A stretch of DNA of 64,000 bases, taken from NCBI GenBank assembly GCA_965227035.1, contig OZ245724.1:3072605-3136604 (forward strand). Reading direction: 5' to 3'. The stretch is from Burkholderiaceae bacterium (GTDB lineage Bacteria; Pseudomonadota; Gammaproteobacteria; Burkholderiales; Burkholderiaceae_C). Positions 1 to 64,000 of the stretch are shown in pieces (within the stretch, counting starts at the first letter, position 1; every line of letters begins with the position of its first letter). The notes under the pieces were generated by a model. The model worked only from the letters and a program-made list of their open reading frames with translations, made no database searches and was not told where the DNA came from. The translations under genes and the position numbers were made by a program.

Positions 1-580
1 GCTTGGTGCAATGAATGTAGGTACGCGGCAGTCCGTTGCCGACTGGATTCTTCAAATTCAATGGGCTGCTGTAGAGGCTCATCGGCTGATCGGTGAGACG
101 TCTTTGCACCCATGCTTCGTCGGGCGTTCCCGGCACCATTCCGAAGGATGCCGCAGTACCCGACGGCAGGCCGAATCGGCCCAGACCTTCCCGCGCCGCG
201 ACCATGGCTTTTCGGCGCTCGACTTCTTCTGGCGGGTAGGTGGAAAACAGTGTCTTGTTCGGTTGGAGGATCAGGCTGTCCAGGTACACCAGATGCCTGA
301 TCTTCTCGGGAATACGATCGGCGACACCGCTGATGGGAAGGCCGCCGAAGCTGTGCCCCACCAGAATGATGTCGTCGAGTTCTTCATGCGTGATGTGGTT
401 GATCACGTCCAGAACAAAAGTGTCCAGCGTGATCTGGTCCGAGATGAGATGACTTTTTTCTCCCACGCCGGTTTGATTCGGCGTGGTCACGCGATGCCCT
501 TTTGCGCGCAGCCTGTCGGCCACGCGAGTCCAGCACCACGCGCCATGCCATGCACCGTGAAGAAGAACGAAGTTACTCAT
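1..580 (-). CDS. alpha/beta hydrolase (esterase-like), 3' end cut by window edge
   Basis: Own minus-strand translation from ATG (complement of 578-580): MSNFVLLHGAWHGAWCWTRVADRLRAKGHRVTTPNQTGVGEKS...DDIILVGHSFGGLPISGVADRIPEK. It has the HG oxyanion motif and a GHSFGG nucleophile elbow. The ORF runs off the left edge, so it is absent from the ORF track; the plus-strand ORF 11..622 is its antisense shadow. Confidence 0.75.
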   Translation of the reverse strand, partial: MSNFVLLHGAWHGAWCWTRVADRLRAKGHRVTTPNQTGVGEKSHLISDQITLDTFVLDVINHITHEELDDIILVGHSFGGLPISGVADRIPEKIRHLVYLDSLILQPNKTLFSTYPPEEVERRKAMVAAREGLGRFGLPSGTAASFGMVPGTPDEAWVQRRLTDQPMSLYSSPLNLKNPVGNGLPRTYIHCTK

Positions 581-32600: not shown

Positions 32601-34028
32601 TCAAACGCTCCATCCCCCACCCAAAGCCCGAATCAACCCCACCGTCGCCAGATACTGCGCATTCTTCACCTGCAGTGCCCTGCGCCGATTGCTGAGTTCG
32701 CTGCGCTGCGCGTCGAGCAATTCCAGCTGGCTCACGAATCCATTGCGATAACGCGAGTCCGACAGCAAGGTTGCACGGGTCGAGGACGCGACCGAACGAG
32801 TTTGTGCGTCGGCCTGATCGGCGAGGATTCTTAAAGCGGCGAGTTGATCCTCGACATCGCGGAACGCCACGAGAACTTGCTCGCGATAGTCGGCCAATGC
32901 GATGTCGAGTTCGGCATTCGAATTCTCGATTCCCGCCTCCCGGCGACCGCCGTCGAAGATCGGCAACGACAACAGCGCGCCGATCCCCCATGCGCTGGTC
33001 GAGGCCTTGAACAGGTCGCCCAGATTAGGCGCCGCGTAGCCGCCGTTTCCGGTTAGCGAGAAGGTCGGAAACCACGCGGCCTTTGCGACACCGACTCGCG
33101 CGGCAGCCGCCTGCATCGATGCCTGAGCTGCAGCCACATCCGGTCGACGCGTGAGCACCGTGCTCGGCACGCCTGCAGGAATCGTCGGCAATGCTGTCGT
33201 CCAGTCGGCTTGCGCCACCGAGAAGTTCGATGCCACTTCACCTACGAGCACTGCCAGCGCATGCTCGATCTCGGCGCGCCGACGGTCGAGCGCGAACGCG
33301 TCCGATTCGGTCGACGCCACTTCGGTGCGAACTCGCGCTACGTCGAGCTCGGCCACATCGCCTTCGCGAAATCGCGACTCGGTGAGCCGCAGCGTGTTGC
33401 GGTACGCGGACAAGGTGTCACGCACCAGCTCACGTTCGGCATCGAGGGCACGCAGATTCAAATACGCCTGCGCCACGTCGGCCTGCACGATCAATCTGGT
33501 GCTGCGAAGCAGGGCTTCGCGCGACTGCGCATCCAACGACGCAGCGTCCGAGTTGAGCGACAGCTTGCCGAGCAAATCGACCTCGTACGACAGACCGATG
33601 CCCGCGCTCACCACCGTTTGCGGCGTGTTGCCTGTCGTGGCGTCACGCGAACGCGACGCACCGACGCTGGCTCCCACTTGCGGCGACCGATCGGCATCGA
33701 CCGAGCGCAGAATTGCGCGCGCCTGACGCAGTCGTCCTGCTGCCACCATGACACTGCTGTTGCGATCGGCCTTGTCCATGAGCTTGTCCAGCGTCGGGTC
33801 GGAGAACACCTTCCACCAGGTGCCCTGAGCTTGCGGTTGCGCAATCGTGACTGCGGCGTTCGCGGAGCTAGAAGTTTCTTTGTACGCAGCGGGCGCTGTG
33901 GGCAAAGATGACGAATCGATGGATGCGCTCGTGGCGCATCCTGCGAGCACCAGCGCTGCGACGAGCGTCGTCAGCGTGAGTGACGCTGTACGTGGTGCAA
34001 ACCTGAATCCTTTTTGGATCGAAGTCAT
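32601..34028 (-). CDS. RND efflux outer-membrane factor lipoprotein (NodT/OprM/OpcM family)
   Basis: I use the internal start MTSIQKGFRF..LVAALVLAGCATS (lipobox LAGC; ATG = complement of 34026-34028), giving 475 aa. 22 nt downstream of the RND gene. Confidence 0.85.
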   Translation of the reverse strand: MTSIQKGFRFAPRTASLTLTTLVAALVLAGCATSASIDSSSLPTAPAAYKETSSSANAAVTIAQPQAQGTWWKVFSDPTLDKLMDKADRNSSVMVAAGRLRQARAILRSVDADRSPQVGASVGASRSRDATTGNTPQTVVSAGIGLSYEVDLLGKLSLNSDAASLDAQSREALLRSTRLIVQADVAQAYLNLRALDAERELVRDTLSAYRNTLRLTESRFREGDVAELDVARVRTEVASTESDAFALDRRRAEIEHALAVLVGEVASNFSVAQADWTTALPTIPAGVPSTVLTRRPDVAAAQASMQAAAARVGVAKAAWFPTFSLTGNGGYAAPNLGDLFKASTSAWGIGALLSLPIFDGGRREAGIENSNAELDIALADYREQVLVAFRDVEDQLAALRILADQADAQTRSVASSTRATLLSDSRYRNGFVSQLELLDAQRSELSNRRRALQVKNAQYLATVGLIRALGGGWSV

Positions 34029-56115: not shown

Positions 56116-57534
56116 TCAGGCCTTTTCGACGGTCTTTACGCTGGTCTGTGCGCCCGAGTTTCTTGCGGCTCTTCGTGCCAGCGATTCGATCATCGGATGC
56201 GCATTGAAACGCGCCATCATCCGGGTCTTCGAAAGCTGGGTGATAGCCGATTCTGCAATCATCTTCGGCCAGGTCTCGTACGCCGCCTTAACGCATGCCG
56301 ATATGGCGGCCATCGCTGGTTTCTCCGGAATGCTCAGCGCCGAGCAAAACGCGCGAACCATAGCGGGCGAGAGAGATTGTTTTGGCGCCGCCCCGCCCTC
56401 CAACGGCTCCGCTTTGGGACTCAAGCCTGGTGGGACGATGAACAGCGCGTGACCCTTCGCGGTATTGAAGGCCGAGTACGCGACGATGTCATAGGCCGGA
56501 GGAAACTCCGGCGTCCTGCCGTCCGGATATCGCAGGCCCATATTTTTGAGATGCATGTCCGGATTACCGAGCAACTCGTTCACGACGAGTCTTCGAAGTA
56601 GCTCGTGCACTGCAGACTCGCCAAGCGAAGGTTCGCTCATCAATACGGCTGCAACGCTCAGATAGGTTTGCGGATTCGCCCGATCGGCACCGCGGTATTT
56701 GTCTTCCGGCATCTCGCCCAGGACCTGCGCGAAGTCTTCGCAATGGATGCGTCCTTCGGGCGAGCGATCGTATCGAACAACTGCGAGAAAGTTGGTTTGA
56801 GCGTCGATGTTGCCGAGGTCGTAATCGTGCTGCGCGCCGAGTTTTTCCAATGGCTCCAGGTACGCTTCGCATGCGTTCACGCCGGCCGCGCGCGCGAGTC
56901 GTAGCGAGAGGTCTTCCACCTCGGGCAGCATTGGCTGACCCGTTACCGGAAGCTTTGCAATGATCGAGGTATCGCGATCCTTCGTGCGGCCAACGTATCT
57001 GTCGCCCAACTTGATCACGCCGAGTTTCGGTTGCACACCCGAGAGCGATACGCCCTCGTCGAGAGGATCTGCGGTGACCGACATTTCCAGCGCGTCCTGA
57101 TCTTGCGTCACGTAATGAGCAAGTTCGTCTCGAGTCAACTCGACAGGCAGCGCGTAGATGTTTCCGGGCAGATCCTTGCCGCACGCGGCCAGCATTTCGA
57201 AATGATCTTTCGGATCGCATTGGCGAAGCGCCGCAACATGATCGCGGAACACGCCTTCGGGCAAAAGGTTCTGAAAATACGAGGGCAGCAGCCATCCGTT
57301 CGCCGCCGAGTAGCGCCCGTTGAATGGTGCCGATGCGATGCTGGCCCACAGCGCCTGTTGCTGCTCGGGGCTTTCGGCCAAATAGGAAAGTGAAATAAGC
57401 GGAGCGTCGCGAAGATTGCGAAACGCCACGTCGGCTTCGAATCGATTGATGACTGCGGCTCCGGCGGACGCGTACTGGAACAGCACGCCGACCCGCAGTG
57501 TGCCTAGATAGATGCCGAGCGCCTTGACGTTCAT
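56116..57534 (-). CDS. hipA: type II toxin HipA-family serine/threonine kinase
   Basis: 472 aa. SLSGVQPKLG (P-loop-like motif) and LLGNPDMHLKNMGL (catalytic loop). ATGA overlap with the upstream HTH gene. Confidence 0.9.
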   Translation of the reverse strand: MNVKALGIYLGTLRVGVLFQYASAGAAVINRFEADVAFRNLRDAPLISLSYLAESPEQQQALWASIASAPFNGRYSAANGWLLPSYFQNLLPEGVFRDHVAALRQCDPKDHFEMLAACGKDLPGNIYALPVELTRDELAHYVTQDQDALEMSVTADPLDEGVSLSGVQPKLGVIKLGDRYVGRTKDRDTSIIAKLPVTGQPMLPEVEDLSLRLARAAGVNACEAYLEPLEKLGAQHDYDLGNIDAQTNFLAVVRYDRSPEGRIHCEDFAQVLGEMPEDKYRGADRANPQTYLSVAAVLMSEPSLGESAVHELLRRLVVNELLGNPDMHLKNMGLRYPDGRTPEFPPAYDIVAYSAFNTAKGHALFIVPPGLSPKAEPLEGGAAPKQSLSPAMVRAFCSALSIPEKPAMAAISACVKAAYETWPKMIAESAITQLSKTRMMARFNAHPMIESLARRAARNSGAQTSVKTVEKA

Positions 57535-57869
57535 TCTGCGTCTCGCATGGTGTCGTTGGCGGAAGCGATCCGGTCGAGTGCCGCCTGGACTTTCGATTTG
57601 ACCGCCGGTGCTGCTGATTCATCCGACCCTGCATATTCGTTCACTGCATTCACTGCATTTGCCGCGCCTTTCGGCACCAGGAGAAGCTCCAGCCCCAGCC
57701 TGTCTGCCAGCGCCAGCAAGGTGCTGAGCTTGAAATCTTCCTTGCCGCTGAGGACATTCGTGAGCGTGCGACCGGAGATGCCGGCCATCGCCTTGAGTTC
57801 GGCCTGAGTGAGGTTAAGGCGGGTGAGCGCGGCGCGTAATTGCTCTGAGGTTTCGGCAAGCGTTTTCAT
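57531..57869 (-). CDS. hipB: HipB-like XRE-family HTH antitoxin
   Basis: 112 aa. HTH LTQAELKAMAGISGRTLTNVLSGKEDFKLSTLLALADRLGLEL. Immediately upstream of and overlapping hipA. Confidence 0.8.
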   Translation of the reverse strand: MKTLAETSEQLRAALTRLNLTQAELKAMAGISGRTLTNVLSGKEDFKLSTLLALADRLGLELLLVPKGAANAVNAVNEYAGSDESAAPAVKSKVQAALDRIASANDTMRDAE

Positions 57870-58994: not shown

Positions 58995-59120
58995 TTATAT
59001 CGATTGTGCATGTGAACATGTAGAAAATGGATTTGCCACGATGCGCCCTGTTGAGTCACCATCGTCTGTCAAACTCCCATCGTCCAACCGACAAACCGCT
59101 AAAAACAGGAGATAAGTTTC

Positions 59121-59774
59121 ATGGCTCTTCGCATCAACGACACCGTTCCCGATTTCTCTGCAGAGACCGATCAGGGCCCCATCAAATTTCACGACTGGAT
59201 CGGCTCCGACTGGGCCATCCTGTTCTCGCATCCCAAAGACTTCACGCCCGTGTGCACCACCGAATTCGGCGCAGTGGCACAACTGTCCGCCGAATGGGCC
59301 AAGCGCAAGACCAAGGTGATCGGCGTGTCGGTGGACGACGCGGAATCGCACAAAAAATGGAAAGGCGACATCGAGAAGTATTGCGGAACCACCGCCGGTT
59401 TCCCGATCATTGCCGACGTCGGCCTGGCCGTGTCGAAAGCATTCGACATGCTGCCCGCCGAAGCCTACCTTCCCGATGGCCGCACACCCAACGACACCGC
59501 TACGGTGCGCTCGGTTTTCATCATCGGCCCGGACAAGAAGGTCAAGCTGTCGATGACCTACCCCATGTCGGTAGGTCGCAACTTCGCCGAAGTGTTGCGC
59601 GCGCTGGATGCGTTGCAGCTCACCTTCAATGTGCCGCTCGCTACGCCTGCAAATTGGAGCGTTGGGGAAGATGTGATCGTGGCGCTGGCGTTGAATGACG
59701 AGCAGGCTAAGGAGAAGTATGGGGAGCTGGATAAGAAGTTGCCGTATTTGAGGACGGCGCGGGCGCCTAAGTGA
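59121..59774 (+). CDS. 1-Cys peroxiredoxin (Prx6 subfamily)
   Basis: 217 aa. FSHPKDFTPVCTTE peroxidatic-Cys motif. AGGAGA SD. Confidence 0.9.
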   Translation: MALRINDTVPDFSAETDQGPIKFHDWIGSDWAILFSHPKDFTPVCTTEFGAVAQLSAEWAKRKTKVIGVSVDDAESHKKWKGDIEKYCGTTAGFPIIADVGLAVSKAFDMLPAEAYLPDGRTPNDTATVRSVFIIGPDKKVKLSMTYPMSVGRNFAEVLRALDALQLTFNVPLATPANWSVGEDVIVALALNDEQAKEKYGELDKKLPYLRTARAPK

Positions 59775-59869
59775 ACTAATAGTCTATAGCGCTCCCGACA
59801 CCTTGGGGTTAGTCCTCAACTGGCTCTCCTTATCTAACTTCTGCAGCGAGCAAGTTGCCTTACGCGTGA

Positions 59870-61774
59870 TCAGTTTGCGTAAGTCATGTTCGCTTCAACG
59901 GTGTCAGCGTCATTCTCCGCGTCAATACCCTCATCGCCGGACTCCCCTGCATATGCAGTCTTGCCAGTTGCCAGTTCAATCAACGTCAACAATCGCTGTT
60001 GTCGGTCCGCCATAAACGCGCCGAAGTCATCATCGCGTATCAACTTAGGGGTAATGAGGTGAGAGTCTAGGTAAGCGTTGAGTCTCTGCCCATCTATGGC
60101 GGGCGTTGCCGCGTCACCGTTCGACAACCTTGCCAAATATTCTGATGGTGCGACTCCACCAATCATTCGGTTCGTTCGAAACGACAAGGGCGTCTTATTG
60201 ATGATGGAATCGAATACTGACGGTTTAATGCCATGCTTTTTGCACCAGTCTTGCGGAAAGATGTGATGGATATCGACGTTTTCACCAAAAAAAACTGTGT
60301 GGTCGAATTTTTGGCCCGATCGGAAGTCCTGCGCCCCTTGCTTCATCAGCAAGGCATTGATTCCTTTGTACGCCGCAGAGAGGCGCATTCGCATCGTCTT
60401 CAGTCGATCGGCCCTGAAAATAGTTTCACTGACCGTACTTGGCTCGATACCGCCGTTGAGCCACGCGGGCACCTCCACAAAATCCTTCGCTATGCGAGTC
60501 TCCACCGTAGATCCATAAAGCTCTCCAAAAACCCCATTCCAATACCAACGCACTAACTTTTCGCGGTTTGCTTCGTGCTCCCACGCGTCGCCTATGTCCG
60601 CAAGAATTGCCGCCAACGGCACGATCTGCGACTGGTAGGGCAGGTCGAATATGCGATAGATGTGAAGCAAATGCAAAAACTTTGCCGCCTTCAAAAACCC
60701 TGCCTCAACTCGGCTCTCGTATTGTTTGTACGCGGCGAGTGGCAAGCCAAGCAGCGCTTGGCGATTGCCGGTGACGGCGGGCAACTCTTTCCCCTGCTTC
60801 CCAGCGAGTTCAGCCTGACGGCGGCGATCACGAGTGTAGAAAAGCGAAATCGCTTGCAAAAAATCGGTATTGCCTACGTTGGCAATGATTCCTGCCTCGG
60901 AGTCCGCAGGTTTCAAAGTATCGACAAAACGGCGATGGCGACCACGTGAGTGGTCATCGCCATACCAATCCTTGCGCAACTCGTGACCATCTGACGCGTA
61001 CATCGCCGTCACCAATTCAAAAGCATCTAAGGGCTTACCGCCTGTGTTCACTTTTTCAAACACAACGCATACGGCCTCTTTCGTAGTGCTCCTATCCAAC
61101 GCGATTACCGGCACGCGGTACGACTTGAAGTTTTCCAGCACCTCTCGCTTAAAACGTCTGAACTCCTCTCGCACGGTTTCGTGCTCGTCACCGCGCCACG
61201 CTTTATCGAATCCGTCTTGCCACTTATCCCAATCGAAGACTTTCGTCACCGGATACATCAGTAGCTTGTATTCTTGCTCCGCCGAAGAAAGATCCGGACC
61301 TGCTTCCCGGCCGAATTCGCCACGAACTATTCGATCCTCAGGAACGCCCAATATGGCTTCCTCGCGATCTGCTGAGGCATCCAACGCTTTACGAATGTCG
61401 ATGTAAAACCACCGCTTGACTTTCTTTTTCTTGGGCGTGACCGTATCAACTACCTTGTCTCTCATAGACACTTGGTACAGCGAGGTCATGCGCTGTTGTC
61501 CATCCAACAATAAGGAGAACGGCTTCATTTCCTTAGATGCCGCTGGAACCCCTTCAATTGGTCGCGGCTTGAAATTAACGTCGCCACCCGTTTCAAGTGT
61601 CATCAACGCTCCCACTGGGAAAGCACGCGAAATTGACGCGATCAGACTTTTAATTCGATCCTCGTCCCATACCCAACTACGCTGAAAATCTGGCAACTGC
61701 AGCGCGCCAAGGTGACAGTCCTCAAGCAGTTTGGATAGATCGTACGGGTTGGTTTGGAACGTTGAGCCGGCCAT
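59870..61774 (-). CDS. DUF262/DUF1524 protein, GmrSD-type (type IV modification-dependent restriction / SspE/BrxU-like) nuclease
   Basis: 634 aa. N-terminal LQLPDFQRSWVWDEDRI, LLLDGQQRMTSLYQ and VVFEKVNTGGKPLDAFEL (DUF262/ParB-like NTPase motifs). C-terminal DIHHIFPQDW..INKTPLSFRTNR (His-Me finger, DUF1524-like). Confidence 0.8.
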   Translation of the reverse strand: MAGSTFQTNPYDLSKLLEDCHLGALQLPDFQRSWVWDEDRIKSLIASISRAFPVGALMTLETGGDVNFKPRPIEGVPAASKEMKPFSLLLDGQQRMTSLYQVSMRDKVVDTVTPKKKKVKRWFYIDIRKALDASADREEAILGVPEDRIVRGEFGREAGPDLSSAEQEYKLLMYPVTKVFDWDKWQDGFDKAWRGDEHETVREEFRRFKREVLENFKSYRVPVIALDRSTTKEAVCVVFEKVNTGGKPLDAFELVTAMYASDGHELRKDWYGDDHSRGRHRRFVDTLKPADSEAGIIANVGNTDFLQAISLFYTRDRRRQAELAGKQGKELPAVTGNRQALLGLPLAAYKQYESRVEAGFLKAAKFLHLLHIYRIFDLPYQSQIVPLAAILADIGDAWEHEANREKLVRWYWNGVFGELYGSTVETRIAKDFVEVPAWLNGGIEPSTVSETIFRADRLKTMRMRLSAAYKGINALLMKQGAQDFRSGQKFDHTVFFGENVDIHHIFPQDWCKKHGIKPSVFDSIINKTPLSFRTNRMIGGVAPSEYLARLSNGDAATPAIDGQRLNAYLDSHLITPKLIRDDDFGAFMADRQQRLLTLIELATGKTAYAGESGDEGIDAENDADTVEANMTYAN

Positions 61775-62288
61775 AAATTCTCGAATTAGGAAAGTTCAAA
61801 TGCTCTCGATTGTTCGGTGTTTCACCGCTAATCATGCGAAGTAGCAGCATTAAAAATCAACTGCAATCGTGGGTCTACTTAATTATGTGCTAGTCATTGG
61901 ATACCATCGAATGACAAAAATTGTGTGAACGAGAAGTTCGCAGGACCCGTCTACTTCAGCAACCCATTTTCCCAACAACTTTGATTTTCCGCCGCGTAGA
62001 TTTTTCACTAGGGTTGCTGCAACGCGCAAGGCGCGCACCACTACTTTCAAATTTCGTTGTCCCGAGTAATTGGATCTCTGCTTACCGAACAACGTATCAA
62101 ACTTCGTCGTATCGAAAAGAGCATCGTAAAAATGTCTTTCCTCAATACACCGCCAATGCCATTCCTCAGAAATAGGTGTCTTAGATTACGCGGCGAGTCT
62201 TTGCGAGAACGCTTGGTCAAAATGTGGGCACGTCGACCTGTGATGGCAAGATGTCTCCTAGTGCATTCTTTAAAGCGCGGTTTGCCCA

Positions 62289-63245
62289 TTACTCAAAAAG
62301 CGCTTCGCCAGGTAGCGTCGCACGGATAGTAGCTTTCAATTTGTTGGCGGCTTCATCCAAATTCGCCGGATCCCACACCACCGTTAAATGGTGATTTGTG
62401 TCGAAATGGGTACCCTGACTCTTATCGTTGAATACGTCCTTGCGACACAGATAGATCACTGGCTTGCCAAGCCCTTCCGCGAACCCCGCCTCCCAATAAG
62501 CGCCTTTATTGTGGTGAGTTAGATCCGCAAGCAAAAATCGACTTTTCCTTATTTCTACACGCAAGCGGTCGTCGATAAGTCCTGCGGGCTGAGCATCATC
62601 AAGGCGCTTCAGATCAAAGCCAGTTGCCGCTACTGCCGGAAGAAAAAAGTCGTTAACAACAGCGTCCAAATCTGACTGTCCGAACTGCATCGCGATAAAC
62701 GCGGAGCGACCTGAAGTTTGTCCGCGCTCAAGTTCTTCGTAATAGTTCCACCCGTGCAACGTCAAGCGCAGCTCGTGAACACTAAATTCCCCACCTATAA
62801 AGTCTGCGAATTCGCATTGAATATAGCCAGACTGCTTCGCGTGACTTAGCAGCACTCGCACAGACCGCATGTCCTTGGCGCCCACAGCTGAAAGGACAGC
62901 TTCTGACATTTCAACAGTCGCACCCAAAGTCGGCAAAGACTCCCCCATCCACGAAATCAAGTTCTCAAGTTGCTCTTGCGGTTTTGGAAGGACAGTCCCT
63001 GTGATGATGTTGCCCAATAACTCGCTATCAAGCATGGCCCATTGTTGGCGCTTGGTCATGCGATGAAGCGCGTAACTCAACTTATCGCGTGCCTCGGGGC
63101 GCTGATTCAAGCGCCAACTTAGTTCGTCGAGAGCAGTACGCGACAAGGAAAATCCGCCACAGCGAGGGCATTCATAAAAGAGCCTTTCCCCGCGGTCTTC
63201 ACTCTTGATCAAATCGTGCTTACAGACTGGACATGATTCGGCCAT
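62289..63245 (-). CDS. uncharacterised protein: N-terminal 4-Cys zinc ribbon + C-terminal nucleoside 2-deoxyribosyltransferase/TIR-like domain
   Basis: I place the start at MAESCPVCKH (ATG = complement of 63243-63245), with GAGGAA 5 nt upstream; an in-frame ATG at 63275 is also possible. CPVC-x17-CPRC, then ..SAFIAMQFGQSD.. and ..RFLLADLTHHNKGAYWEAGFAEGLGKPVIYLC... 318 aa. Confidence 0.7.
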   Translation of the reverse strand: MAESCPVCKHDLIKSEDRGERLFYECPRCGGFSLSRTALDELSWRLNQRPEARDKLSYALHRMTKRQQWAMLDSELLGNIITGTVLPKPQEQLENLISWMGESLPTLGATVEMSEAVLSAVGAKDMRSVRVLLSHAKQSGYIQCEFADFIGGEFSVHELRLTLHGWNYYEELERGQTSGRSAFIAMQFGQSDLDAVVNDFFLPAVAATGFDLKRLDDAQPAGLIDDRLRVEIRKSRFLLADLTHHNKGAYWEAGFAEGLGKPVIYLCRKDVFNDKSQGTHFDTNHHLTVVWDPANLDEAANKLKATIRATLPGEALFE

Positions 63246-63518
63246 ATGTTTCCTCGTTGGATAGCGCAAAGGCATATGCCGATGCGCTTTGCACGTTCAC
63301 TCCGACAAGAGTGGCGCGTTGCTTTTTGGCCGCGACGACTCGCATCCTTTACCACTTACATAAAGCGAGTGATCAGCAAAGACAAGCCCGTTGTTCGGCG
63401 GAAATTTTCTTATCGCAGCACTGCCGACAGCATGAATGTTGGCGTTGGCTGTACCGAAGATACGCCGCCCTTCCAAAATTAACAGCGCGAAGGCCGCACC
63501 ATCTAGCTCGGTGCGTTC

Positions 63519-63542
63519 AGCCCTAGCGGAGATTCTAGGGCT
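63519..63542 (-). terminator. hairpin downstream of glmS (possible terminator)
   Basis: AGCCCTAG-cggagatt-CTAGGGCT (8-bp stem), about 75 nt after the glmS stop. There is no clear T run on the minus strand, so confidence is low. Confidence 0.3.
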
Positions 63543-63616
63543 ATGACTGACTTATTTCGAACTCGCAAGACGATCAAGTTTTCAACCTGACCGCCACCTA
63601 ACCAGCTTCACCCCCC

Positions 63617-64000
63617 TCACTCCACCGTCACACTCTTAGCCAAATTCCTCGGCTTATCCACATCCGTCCCCCTCGCACACGCCGTGTGATACGCCAGCAA
63701 CTGCAGCGGCACCACATGCAGCAGCGGTGATAGCGCGCCGTAGTGCTCCGGCATGCGGATCACGTGAATGCCGTCTTCGTTTTCGATGCGGCTGTCGGCG
63801 TCGGCCAGCACGTAAAGCACGCCGCCTCGTGCGCGGACTTCCTGCAGATTGCTTTTGAGTTTCTCGATGAGCGAATCGTTGGGCGCTACCGCGACCACGG
63901 GCATCTCGCTCGTGACGAGAGCAAGCGGGCCGTGCTTCAACTCGCCGGCTGCGTACGCTTCGGCGTGAATGTAGGTGATCTCTTTGAGTTTGAGCGCGCC
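63617..64000 (-). CDS. glmS: glutamine--fructose-6-phosphate aminotransferase, C-terminal part (5' end outside the window)
   Basis: The frame stays open to the right edge: [40 protein letters not shown]...[31 protein letters not shown], the canonical GlmS C-terminus. Confidence 0.95.

Follow-up and report, generated by a model that had tools for sequence, protein, structure and literature searches.

Erosion of a defence island around a type I restriction-modification operon probably explains a low-GC islet downstream of glmS in a Burkholderiaceae bacterium

A short islet of low G+C content lies directly downstream of glmS in a Burkholderiaceae bacterium (assembly GCA_965227035.1, contig OZ245724.1). 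We analyzed it within a stretch of 64,000 nucleotides (positions 3,072,605 to 3,136,604 of the contig), called the window here, and all coordinates refer to this window. The islet occupies positions 59775-63616, between the stop codons of a 1-Cys peroxiredoxin gene (prx) and of glmS. We conclude that it probably represents the remains of a defence island that was built on a type I restriction-modification (R-M) operon and eroded in place, with two cargo genes surviving, and that it does not derive from Tn7. According to this scenario, the island would have been inherited from an ancestor common to the lineage of the related locus L091, or exchanged by recombination within the island family, and then eroded. 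Most of hsdR and all of the hsdS and hsdM side would have been lost and a DUF4917 (PDC-S21) cargo gene would have decayed, while open reading frame (ORF) B and a GmrSD-like gene would have been kept intact by purifying selection. Judged from the sequence, the order is glmS, hsdR', ORF B, DUF4917', GmrSD-like gene and prx, with the elements of the islet all on the glmS strand (primes denote remnants). The four elements of the islet are:

63286..63488, minus strand: hsdR', what is left, as a pseudogene, of the part that encodes the N-terminal nuclease region in a type I R subunit, found by tblastn with the L091 HsdR
62289..63245, minus strand: ORF B, intact, 318 amino acids (aa), with a zinc ribbon, a helical/winged-helix middle and a predicted C-terminal domain like those of nucleoside 2-deoxyribosyltransferase (NDT), DNPH1 and TIR proteins
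61878..62187, minus strand: DUF4917', shattered pseudogene of a PADLOC PDC-S21 defence candidate, found by tblastn with the gene at L092:785-1816
59870..61774, minus strand: GmrSD-like gene (ORF A), intact, 634 aa, with an N-terminal DUF262 (ParB/Srx-like NTPase) domain, a helical linker and a C-terminal D-H-N-N motif

Residues 36-97 of the L091 HsdR match positions 63488-63303 on the minus strand at 50% identity (tblastn, E 3e-13; E 1e-9 when searched against all compared loci). Past a frameshift, residues 86-103 match positions 63339-63286 at 67%. The matching stretch overlaps the Pfam HSDR_N match in L091, and the nuclease motif FAD...EAK reads FAD...AAK in the remnant. In L091, the intact hsdR starts 19 bp past the glmS stop codon and is followed by hsdS and an ORF B homologue; relative to glmS, hsdR' has the same position and orientation. 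A functional type I R-M system is no longer encoded, and what is left is a frameshifted piece covering HsdR residues ~36-103, or ~200 bp of hsdR. We also observed an imperfect 22-nt palindrome (GCGCAAAGGCATATGCC/GATGCGCTTTGC) at 63258-63293, ahead of ORF B and 13-48 nt from its start. Located where a deletion presumably joined hsdR' to ORF B, it could be an operator or an RNA hairpin.

The intact form of such an island is seen in related contigs, where hsdR and hsdS are followed by variable embedded cargo (ORF B, DUF4917, GmrSD-like, DUF4357 and others) and then by hsdM, all on one strand. In L090, L091, L094 and L095, whose ORF B homologues are 59-77% identical, hsdR, hsdS and ORF B follow each other with gaps of 9-24 bp, and in L094 two further genes stand past ORF B before hsdM. 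The island of L085, which carries the 88% identical GmrSD-like homologue, opens with hsdR' and hsdS' remnants, contains DUF4747, a dGTPase-like fragment, the GmrSD-like gene, DUF4357/PDC-S14 and PDC-M21A/B, and ends with an hsdM that is 75-82% identical to the L094 hsdM. The DUF4357 gene beside the L085 GmrSD-like gene is found again in L092 and L093, in both cases downstream of ORF B. Homologues of ORF B and of the GmrSD-like gene are repeatedly embedded in type I R-M operons, and their neighbours include PDC-S21, PDC-S14, PDC-M21, AbiEi, PIN/zeta toxin, Abi_2 and KAP NTPase genes. Such embedding is frequent for GmrSD homologues (PMC4619093; TgvAB in PMC11411939).

In L087, an hsdR' remnant directly precedes ORF B, and it covers residues 16-61 while that of the window covers residues 36-103. 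Since the end points differ, the R-M frame was apparently lost independently in the two loci and ORF B was kept. Independent hsdR 5' remnants beside kept cargo lie at L087:7688-7828 and L085:5028-5586, the latter together with an hsdS 3' end; the L085 remnant also carries an odd duplicated 'SRFAIRD' stretch. It seems that the type I R-M frame is lost recurrently and that the embedded genes persist.

The second fossil lies between the two intact genes. DUF4917' covers residues 21-41, 42-113 (43% identity, E 2e-11) and 275-286 of the L092 gene; the pieces are in three different frames and contain an internal stop, and residues ~114-274 (~160) are missing. The intact L092 gene (343 aa) belongs to DUF4917 (Pfam, 1.7e-78) and PDC-S21 (PADLOC, 1.5e-122); a gap of 52 bp separates it from the ORF B homologue upstream, which is the closest one borne on a contig (81%). 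PDC-S21 is presumably a sirtuin-like family. The window itself holds no intact ORF of ~340 aa for DUF4917/PDC-S21. A translated search of the three spacers of the islet against the compared loci revealed that the two spacers on either side of ORF B hold such pseudogene remnants.

The composition of the islet differs clearly from its surroundings. G+C is 0.508 over 59775-63616 compared with 0.5835 in the remaining window. Among 560 segments of the same size elsewhere, G+C had a mean of 0.5835, a standard deviation of 0.0106 and a minimum of 0.557, which gives the islet a z of -7.1. G+C falls past the prx stop codon (TGA, 59772-59774) and recovers at the glmS stop codon (63617-63619). G+C at third codon positions (GC3) is 0.58 and 0.535 in the two long ORFs compared with 0.67-0.80 in Pfam-supported neighbours. 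A preliminary description of this DNA had proposed the dip between the two stop codons from hand counts. These counts were all exact (48/120 at 61801-61920, 27/60 at 62401-62460 and 39/60 at 33001-33060), and the computed profile agrees with the proposal. The two long minus-strand ORFs that it listed, 59870-61774 and 62289-63275, are present as well, and homologues place the true start of ORF B at 63245 (318 aa), not 63275. Its reading of the region as a defence-type islet of foreign composition at the glmS 3' flank is supported, and we likewise found no mobility gene, neither an integrase nor a Tn7 gene, in the islet. The 514-bp spacer is as stop-riddled as described (4-10 stops per frame), but it is not featureless, as a pseudogene remnant lies inside. 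Homologues of ORF B are below the G+C of their flanks in 16 of 18 loci, yet track host G+C (r = 0.87). Since this is common in the family, low G+C is a family trait as much as a sign of recent arrival, and by itself it is weak evidence of recent insertion.

For the nearest ORF B homologue, protein identity is 81% and DNA identity 73.6%; for the nearest GmrSD-like homologue (L085), the values are 88% and 75.6%. In both cases, DNA homology stops at the ends of the coding sequence. Because protein identity exceeds DNA identity and similarity ends at the gene bounds, we conclude that both genes have been under purifying selection for a long time and have no recent donor among known sequences. Indeed, all family-invariant residues are kept in both.

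The preliminary description had left it open whether the cargo was a stranded remnant or had arrived by another route. The first of these stands, in the form of a decayed type I R-M operon with its cargo; a remnant in the Tn7 sense does not. How the island reached this lineage can be read in two ways, and the evidence fits old vertical inheritance with losses as well as repeated exchange within the island family. Recent transfer together with glmS was considered and rejected, since the L091 glmS is as far from the window as that of other relatives (77% and 79% nucleotide identity, respectively) and no 3' mosaic or recombination tract common to L091 and the window was found in glmS.

Several observations weigh against an eroded R-M island. 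L091 is at different-genus distance and has no asnC-type gene separating glmU from glmS, and hence shared descent of the island is not proven. By tblastn, no hsdS or hsdM remnants were found in the window. The nearest GlmS in the collections is only ~87% identical, and all six tested proteins are singletons at 90% among ~15 billion proteins; the comparison of the site hence spans distant lineages. Further points concern the proposed defence role of the surviving genes. ORF B scores 22.1 bits against PF05014, under the cut-off of 28.8, and PADLOC gave no credible model for it, with one TIR-effector match at E 0.004. In the isolated C-terminus of the GmrSD-like protein, DUF1524 (PF07510) gave no match at E<=10, and the structure model of this protein has a pLDDT of 44.

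We compared the surroundings of glmS among relatives. The window is 100% identical to a metagenome contig of the ENA (L001/L082), which extends beyond glmS and includes full-length glmS; accordingly, the same organism or clone was sampled independently. This contig (ERZ25074310, ctg9486, 24.7 kb) shares 4,340 identical bp and ends in prx at window position 59661. Upstream of glmS, the order SLT, 5-formyltetrahydrofolate cyclo-ligase, lysR, DUF2917, DUF6279, glmU, asnC-type regulator, glmS is common to relatives and matches Caenimonas terrae and other Burkholderiales of Comamonadaceae type. In an alignment with four relatives, all similarity is lost directly past the glmS stop codon, and what follows downstream is different in each of six distant lineages and defence-like in three. 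Besides the islet, the contents are:

L083: a gene for a hypothetical protein of 234 aa, then Carb_kinase
L084: a DUF7933 protein
L200: two hypothetical genes, then MerR
L201/L202: OLD-like TOPRIM fragments and insertion sequence (IS) pieces
L091: hsdR, hsdS, ORF B homologue, AbiEi

Since similarity ends at the stop codon and the contents differ, the flank is a variable, defence-prone slot, as the preliminary description had supposed when it called this flank a common island location. With conserved synteny upstream and differing contents downstream in the six lineages, the islet qualifies as a defence island in a variable hotspot. None of the genes downstream of glmS in Caenimonas terrae was found anywhere in the window, so that synteny does not define where the variable region ends on its far side. 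In L201:12187-13691 and L202:4956-9304, we observed OLD-like TOPRIM nuclease fragments, a DUF772 transposase piece and IS66-family genes; here, too, a patch of defence or IS genes is decaying next to glmS.

An alternative that we consider unlikely is a recent and separate arrival of each intact gene, carried by plasmid or phage and recombined into a variable spacer that already existed; the pseudogene fragments would then have hitch-hiked and would not stem from an operon in situ. The GmrSD-like gene does occur on conjugative or mobilisable plasmids (65-72% nucleotide identity), both families are found in IMG/VR contigs, and the G+C of the islet is 7.5 points under that of the host. Moreover, hsdR' adjoins ORF B in L087 too, and an hsdR'-ORF B unit could move. 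However, the different end points in L087 (16-61) and the window (36-103) look like independent deletions, and hsdR' abuts glmS exactly as the intact L091 gene does. Synonymous sites are saturated against every known homologue, with no recent donor in 15 billion proteins, and low G+C relative to the flanks is a family-wide trait.

Very unlikely, in our view, is a non-defence origin, with ORF B as a salvage or regulatory nucleoside(tide) enzyme, the DUF262 protein as a ParB-like housekeeping protein and low G+C as incidental. It is favoured by the name 'nucleoside 2-deoxyribosyltransferase' that PGAP gives to distant full-length ORF B homologues, by TldD/PmbA peptidases among the immediate neighbours of ORF B homologues (~10 of 109) and by the poor PADLOC result for ORF B (TIR-effector at E 0.004 only). 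The distribution of both genes, however, is patchy across phyla and combined with high conservation, both recur in type I R-M operons beside known or candidate defence genes, and DUF262 carries the motifs characteristic of GmrSD proteins.

The preliminary description had linked the islet to the attTn7 position, and cargo of a Tn7-like (or CRISPR-associated Tn7-like) element whose transposition genes and ends were later lost is an explanation that we hold to be extremely improbable. Tn7-like elements can carry defence cargo, and the position fits, as sequence similarity between relatives extends no further than the glmS stop codon. The link was not borne out: there are no tns genes, end repeats resembling TnsB sites or TGT...ACA ends. 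In place of tnsA/B/C and tnsD/tniQ, the two intact ORFs match GmrSD_N and zinc ribbon/NDT, the small spacer ORFs gave no Pfam match, and the only gene remnants are those of hsdR and DUF4917, with no tns-like fragment. When the flanks were searched for the Tn7-like end motifs that the description had suggested, the best 16-mer matches (11-13 of 16) equalled shuffled controls, and the best 16-mers within and between the flanks and the inner spacer did not exceed shuffles either. Neither TGT nor ACA occurs in the first 117 nt past the glmS stop codon. Furthermore, glmS is abutted by an hsdR 5' end as in L091, where the intact hsdR 19 bp past glmS leaves no room for a Tn7 right end, and the left spacer of 95 bp cannot hold a Tn7 end.

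Turning to the surviving genes of the eroded R-M island, ORF B has a CxxC...CxxC zinc ribbon (C5, C8, C26, C29). Pfam matches are Zn_ribbon_TFIIB (2e-5) and Nuc_deoxyrib_tr (1.7e-4, below the gathering score). In 49 homologues, GAYWEAG.AEGL, which includes E252, and HFDTNHH are invariant. The first motif fits the catalytic-glutamate pattern G-x-x-x-E-x-G, as G248-A-Y-W-E252-A-G254, and we take E252 to be the equivalent of the catalytic glutamate of DNPH1/NDT, based on a Foldseek superposition and our knowledge of those enzymes. The AlphaFold model has a pLDDT of 84, and Foldseek retrieved SARM1/TIR-1 TIR domains, DNPH1/Rcl, NDT and BcmB with a probability of ~1.0 (target TM-score 0.55-0.70, E between 5e-4 and 2e-2). 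The C-terminal domain is thus predicted, on the model, to have the flavodoxin-like fold of the NDT/DNPH1 clan (Nribosyltransf). Sequence searches of the PDB gave zinc-ribbon noise only. Membership in DUF4062/Swarozyc was rejected, as DUF4062 was not listed in Pfam at E<=0.01. An exhaustive profile search placed 1,879 clusters (formed at 50% identity) in the family at E<=1e-30; with E<=1e-3, the number rises to 11,627. The distant full-length homologues that PGAP calls nucleoside 2-deoxyribosyltransferases are encoded on Bacillus mycoides plasmids. In L120, L121, L130, L140 and L149, an ORF B homologue (~46-48%) stands between two PmbA/TldD-family peptidase genes, a non-defence context.

NDT-like and TIR-like domains are antiphage effectors, and in defence proteins they are fused to sensor domains (10.1101/2023.08.16.553469; 10.64898/2026.05.01.722283). 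By analogy with the NDT-like effector of retron Ec86 and the TIR-like NADase Swarozyc, ORF B is probably a single-protein sensor-effector. A nucleic acid or phage cue would be recognised by its zinc ribbon and winged helix, and its C-terminal domain would then cleave the N-glycosidic bond in NAD+ or a (deoxy)nucleotide, thereby starving the phage. In the closest clade, ORF B homologues are encoded directly after hsdS. We tentatively suggest, while regarding it as rather doubtful, that ORF B represents an undescribed single-protein antiphage family acting as a PrrC-like back-up effector when phage anti-restriction proteins disable the type I enzyme. Being useful alone, such a protein would be retained despite the independent loss of hsdR/hsdS in the window and L087.

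The GmrSD-like protein matches Pfam GmrSD_N/DUF262 (PF03235, 7e-29) over residues 14-259. QR (31-32), DGQQR (91-95) and F239xxxN243 are invariant in 33 homologues, and so is D501-I-H503-H504...N526...N535 in the C-terminus. QR, DGQQR and FxxxN are the motifs by which the GmrSD family was defined (PMC4619093, PMC11411939). The best PADLOC matches (PDC-M55C, HEC-05, NsnA, SspE) cover the N-terminal domain only, and a profile search of the PDB found SspE and BrxU through DUF262 only. For the isolated C-terminus, the sole Pfam match was HNH_4 at 0.17. On sequence grounds, the N-terminal domain can be assigned firmly to the GmrSD family, and a nuclease part is suggested by the C-terminal motif. By analogy with BrxU, SspE and Eco94GmrSD (summarised in PMC11411939), the protein is probably a stand-alone type IV enzyme, a nucleotide-regulated, modification-dependent nuclease. 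Its DUF262 NTPase would recognise DNA that is modified or foreign and thereupon permit cleavage by a C-terminal nuclease of His-Me-finger type.

The GmrSD-like protein is a divergent member of the DUF262/GmrSD family and is itself highly conserved; homologues 80-88% identical to it occur across Nitrosomonas, Oxalobacteraceae and Desulfurivibrionaceae. The plasmid-borne genes mentioned above belong to Sphingomonadaceae, Paenarthrobacter and Burkholderia. On two sphingomonad plasmids (L203:6667-8847 and L204:6667-8859), a gene for a protein of 726-730 aa with an XRE-type helix-turn-helix and a P-loop (GPIGVGKST) precedes the GmrSD-like gene; it lies 20-29 bp upstream on the same strand, and the plasmid GmrSD-like protein is 78% identical to that of the window. 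This pair may be a two-gene variant. No trace of the partner gene was found in the window, L085 or viral contigs. The idea that ORF B and the GmrSD-like gene form a two-gene system was rejected as well: a GmrSD-like neighbour was found in 0 of 83 ORF B loci, and the window carries no trace of the plasmid partner. The two genes are hence independent modules.

The islet is bounded by the following features:

63617..64000, minus strand: glmS 3' end, right boundary, a core gene that runs past the window, with an intact C-terminus (...AKSVTVE)
63489..63616, no strand: spacer after the glmS stop codon, with weak nucleotide similarity to the first ~100 nt of the L091 hsdR
59775..59869, no strand: spacer between the convergent prx and GmrSD-like stop codons, 95 bp, G+C 0.505, left boundary
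59121..59774, plus strand: 1-Cys peroxiredoxin (prx), left boundary, with AhpC-TSA (7e-28) and 1-cysPrx_C matches and a host-typical GC3 of 0.77

The region of the right spacer aligns globally with the start of the L091 hsdR at 59% over 362 nt; the spacer is either the glmS 3' untranslated region or that section of hsdR', at its 5' end, which is most degraded. It holds a hairpin (63523-63545), and a terminator-like site lies at 63497-63482; both merely fit a consensus, and scans for promoters and terminators gave nothing above shuffled controls. The left spacer showed no similarity to any compared locus and no repeat in common with the right flank beyond chance. Flank and terminal repeats, searched between the flanks and the inner spacer, did not exceed shuffled controls. 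No tRNA was found in the whole window, and Rfam gave no match at E<=1 across 59000-64000.

On the left side, prx is of full length relative to 80 homologues (L002-L081), all 87% identical or less, that were retrieved by scanning GTDB genomes. Neither glmS, lysR, hipA nor one of the two cargo genes lies near any of these 80 loci. Since prx homologues never lie near glmS, these loci are unusable as an empty-site comparison. The nearest homologues are patchy, with Aquabacterium (87%), Geopseudomonas (86%) and Chitinimonas (84%) followed by many Rhodobacterales (70-79%). Exact-protein look-ups of prx and of a 328-aa form of ORF B gave no match. Two genes from the islet, past lysR and prx, positions 56116-57869 on the minus strand encode a HipA-like kinase toxin (472 aa) and an overlapping XRE-type HipB-like antitoxin (112 aa), with host-like composition and a slightly low GC3 (0.67). 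Although host-like in composition, prx-lysR-hipBA may itself form part of the variable region.

Taken together, the islet is an ordinary, common sort of feature, a decayed defence island anchored on a type I R-M operon in a variable slot. It illustrates that a low-GC islet without mobility genes at the classical attTn7 position need not involve Tn7, and that seemingly empty AT-rich spacers can hold pseudogene fossils that reveal the history of an island. It is a further instance of a known pattern in which a type I R-M operon provides the scaffold for defence genes embedded within it, and it indicates that the R-M frame is lost time and again while the cargo is kept. ORF B, as a member of a large, conserved and uncharacterised family with a predicted nucleotide- or NAD-cleaving fold that is outside PADLOC v2 apart from the TIR-effector match (E 0.004), is the best lead of the islet and a reasonable candidate for experimental defence screens.

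Pan-genome studies of E. coli and P. aeruginosa reportedly describe defence hotspots that are flanked by core genes and lack mobility genes. The islet resembles them as a variable, defence-rich slot between conserved genes with lineage-specific cargo and no integrase; the comparison made here spans six distant lineages. With Tn7 insertions at attTn7 it shares the glmS 3' flank, but it lacks tnsABCD(E), end repeats and TGT...ACA termini, and an hsdR fragment abuts glmS. ORF B resembles NDT/DNPH1 (Rcl) N-glycosidases, the retron Ec86 effector, Swarozyc/DUF4062 and SARM1 in its predicted Rossmann-like fold and the G-x-x-x-E-x-G glutamate. It differs from the retron effector in having no reverse transcriptase or ncRNA partner, and from NDT and Swarozyc in its sub-threshold NDT match and lack of a DUF4062 match. 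We know of no described counterpart of its zinc ribbon and winged helix half or of the HFDTNHH motif.

Like Eco94GmrSD, BrxU/HEC-05 and SspE, the GmrSD-like protein combines N-terminal DUF262 motifs, a long helical linker and a C-terminal D-H-N-N; unlike in these proteins, matches to models and structures are confined to the first ~260 residues, and the best PADLOC match is the candidate PDC-M55C, not GmrSD, BrxU or SspE. It is a single polypeptide of 634 aa, whereas TgvAB consists of two proteins, and its DUF1524 is not recognised by Pfam. In contrast to the TgvAB and RloF loci, the operon frame of the islet is destroyed down to ~200 bp of hsdR. Relatives of the islet, however, have exactly the layout of the TgvAB locus on VPI-2 of V. 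cholerae and the RloF locus of C. jejuni, where a GmrSD-family gene and other cargo lie inside an hsdR/hsdS/hsdM operon on one strand (PMC11411939, PMC4619093).

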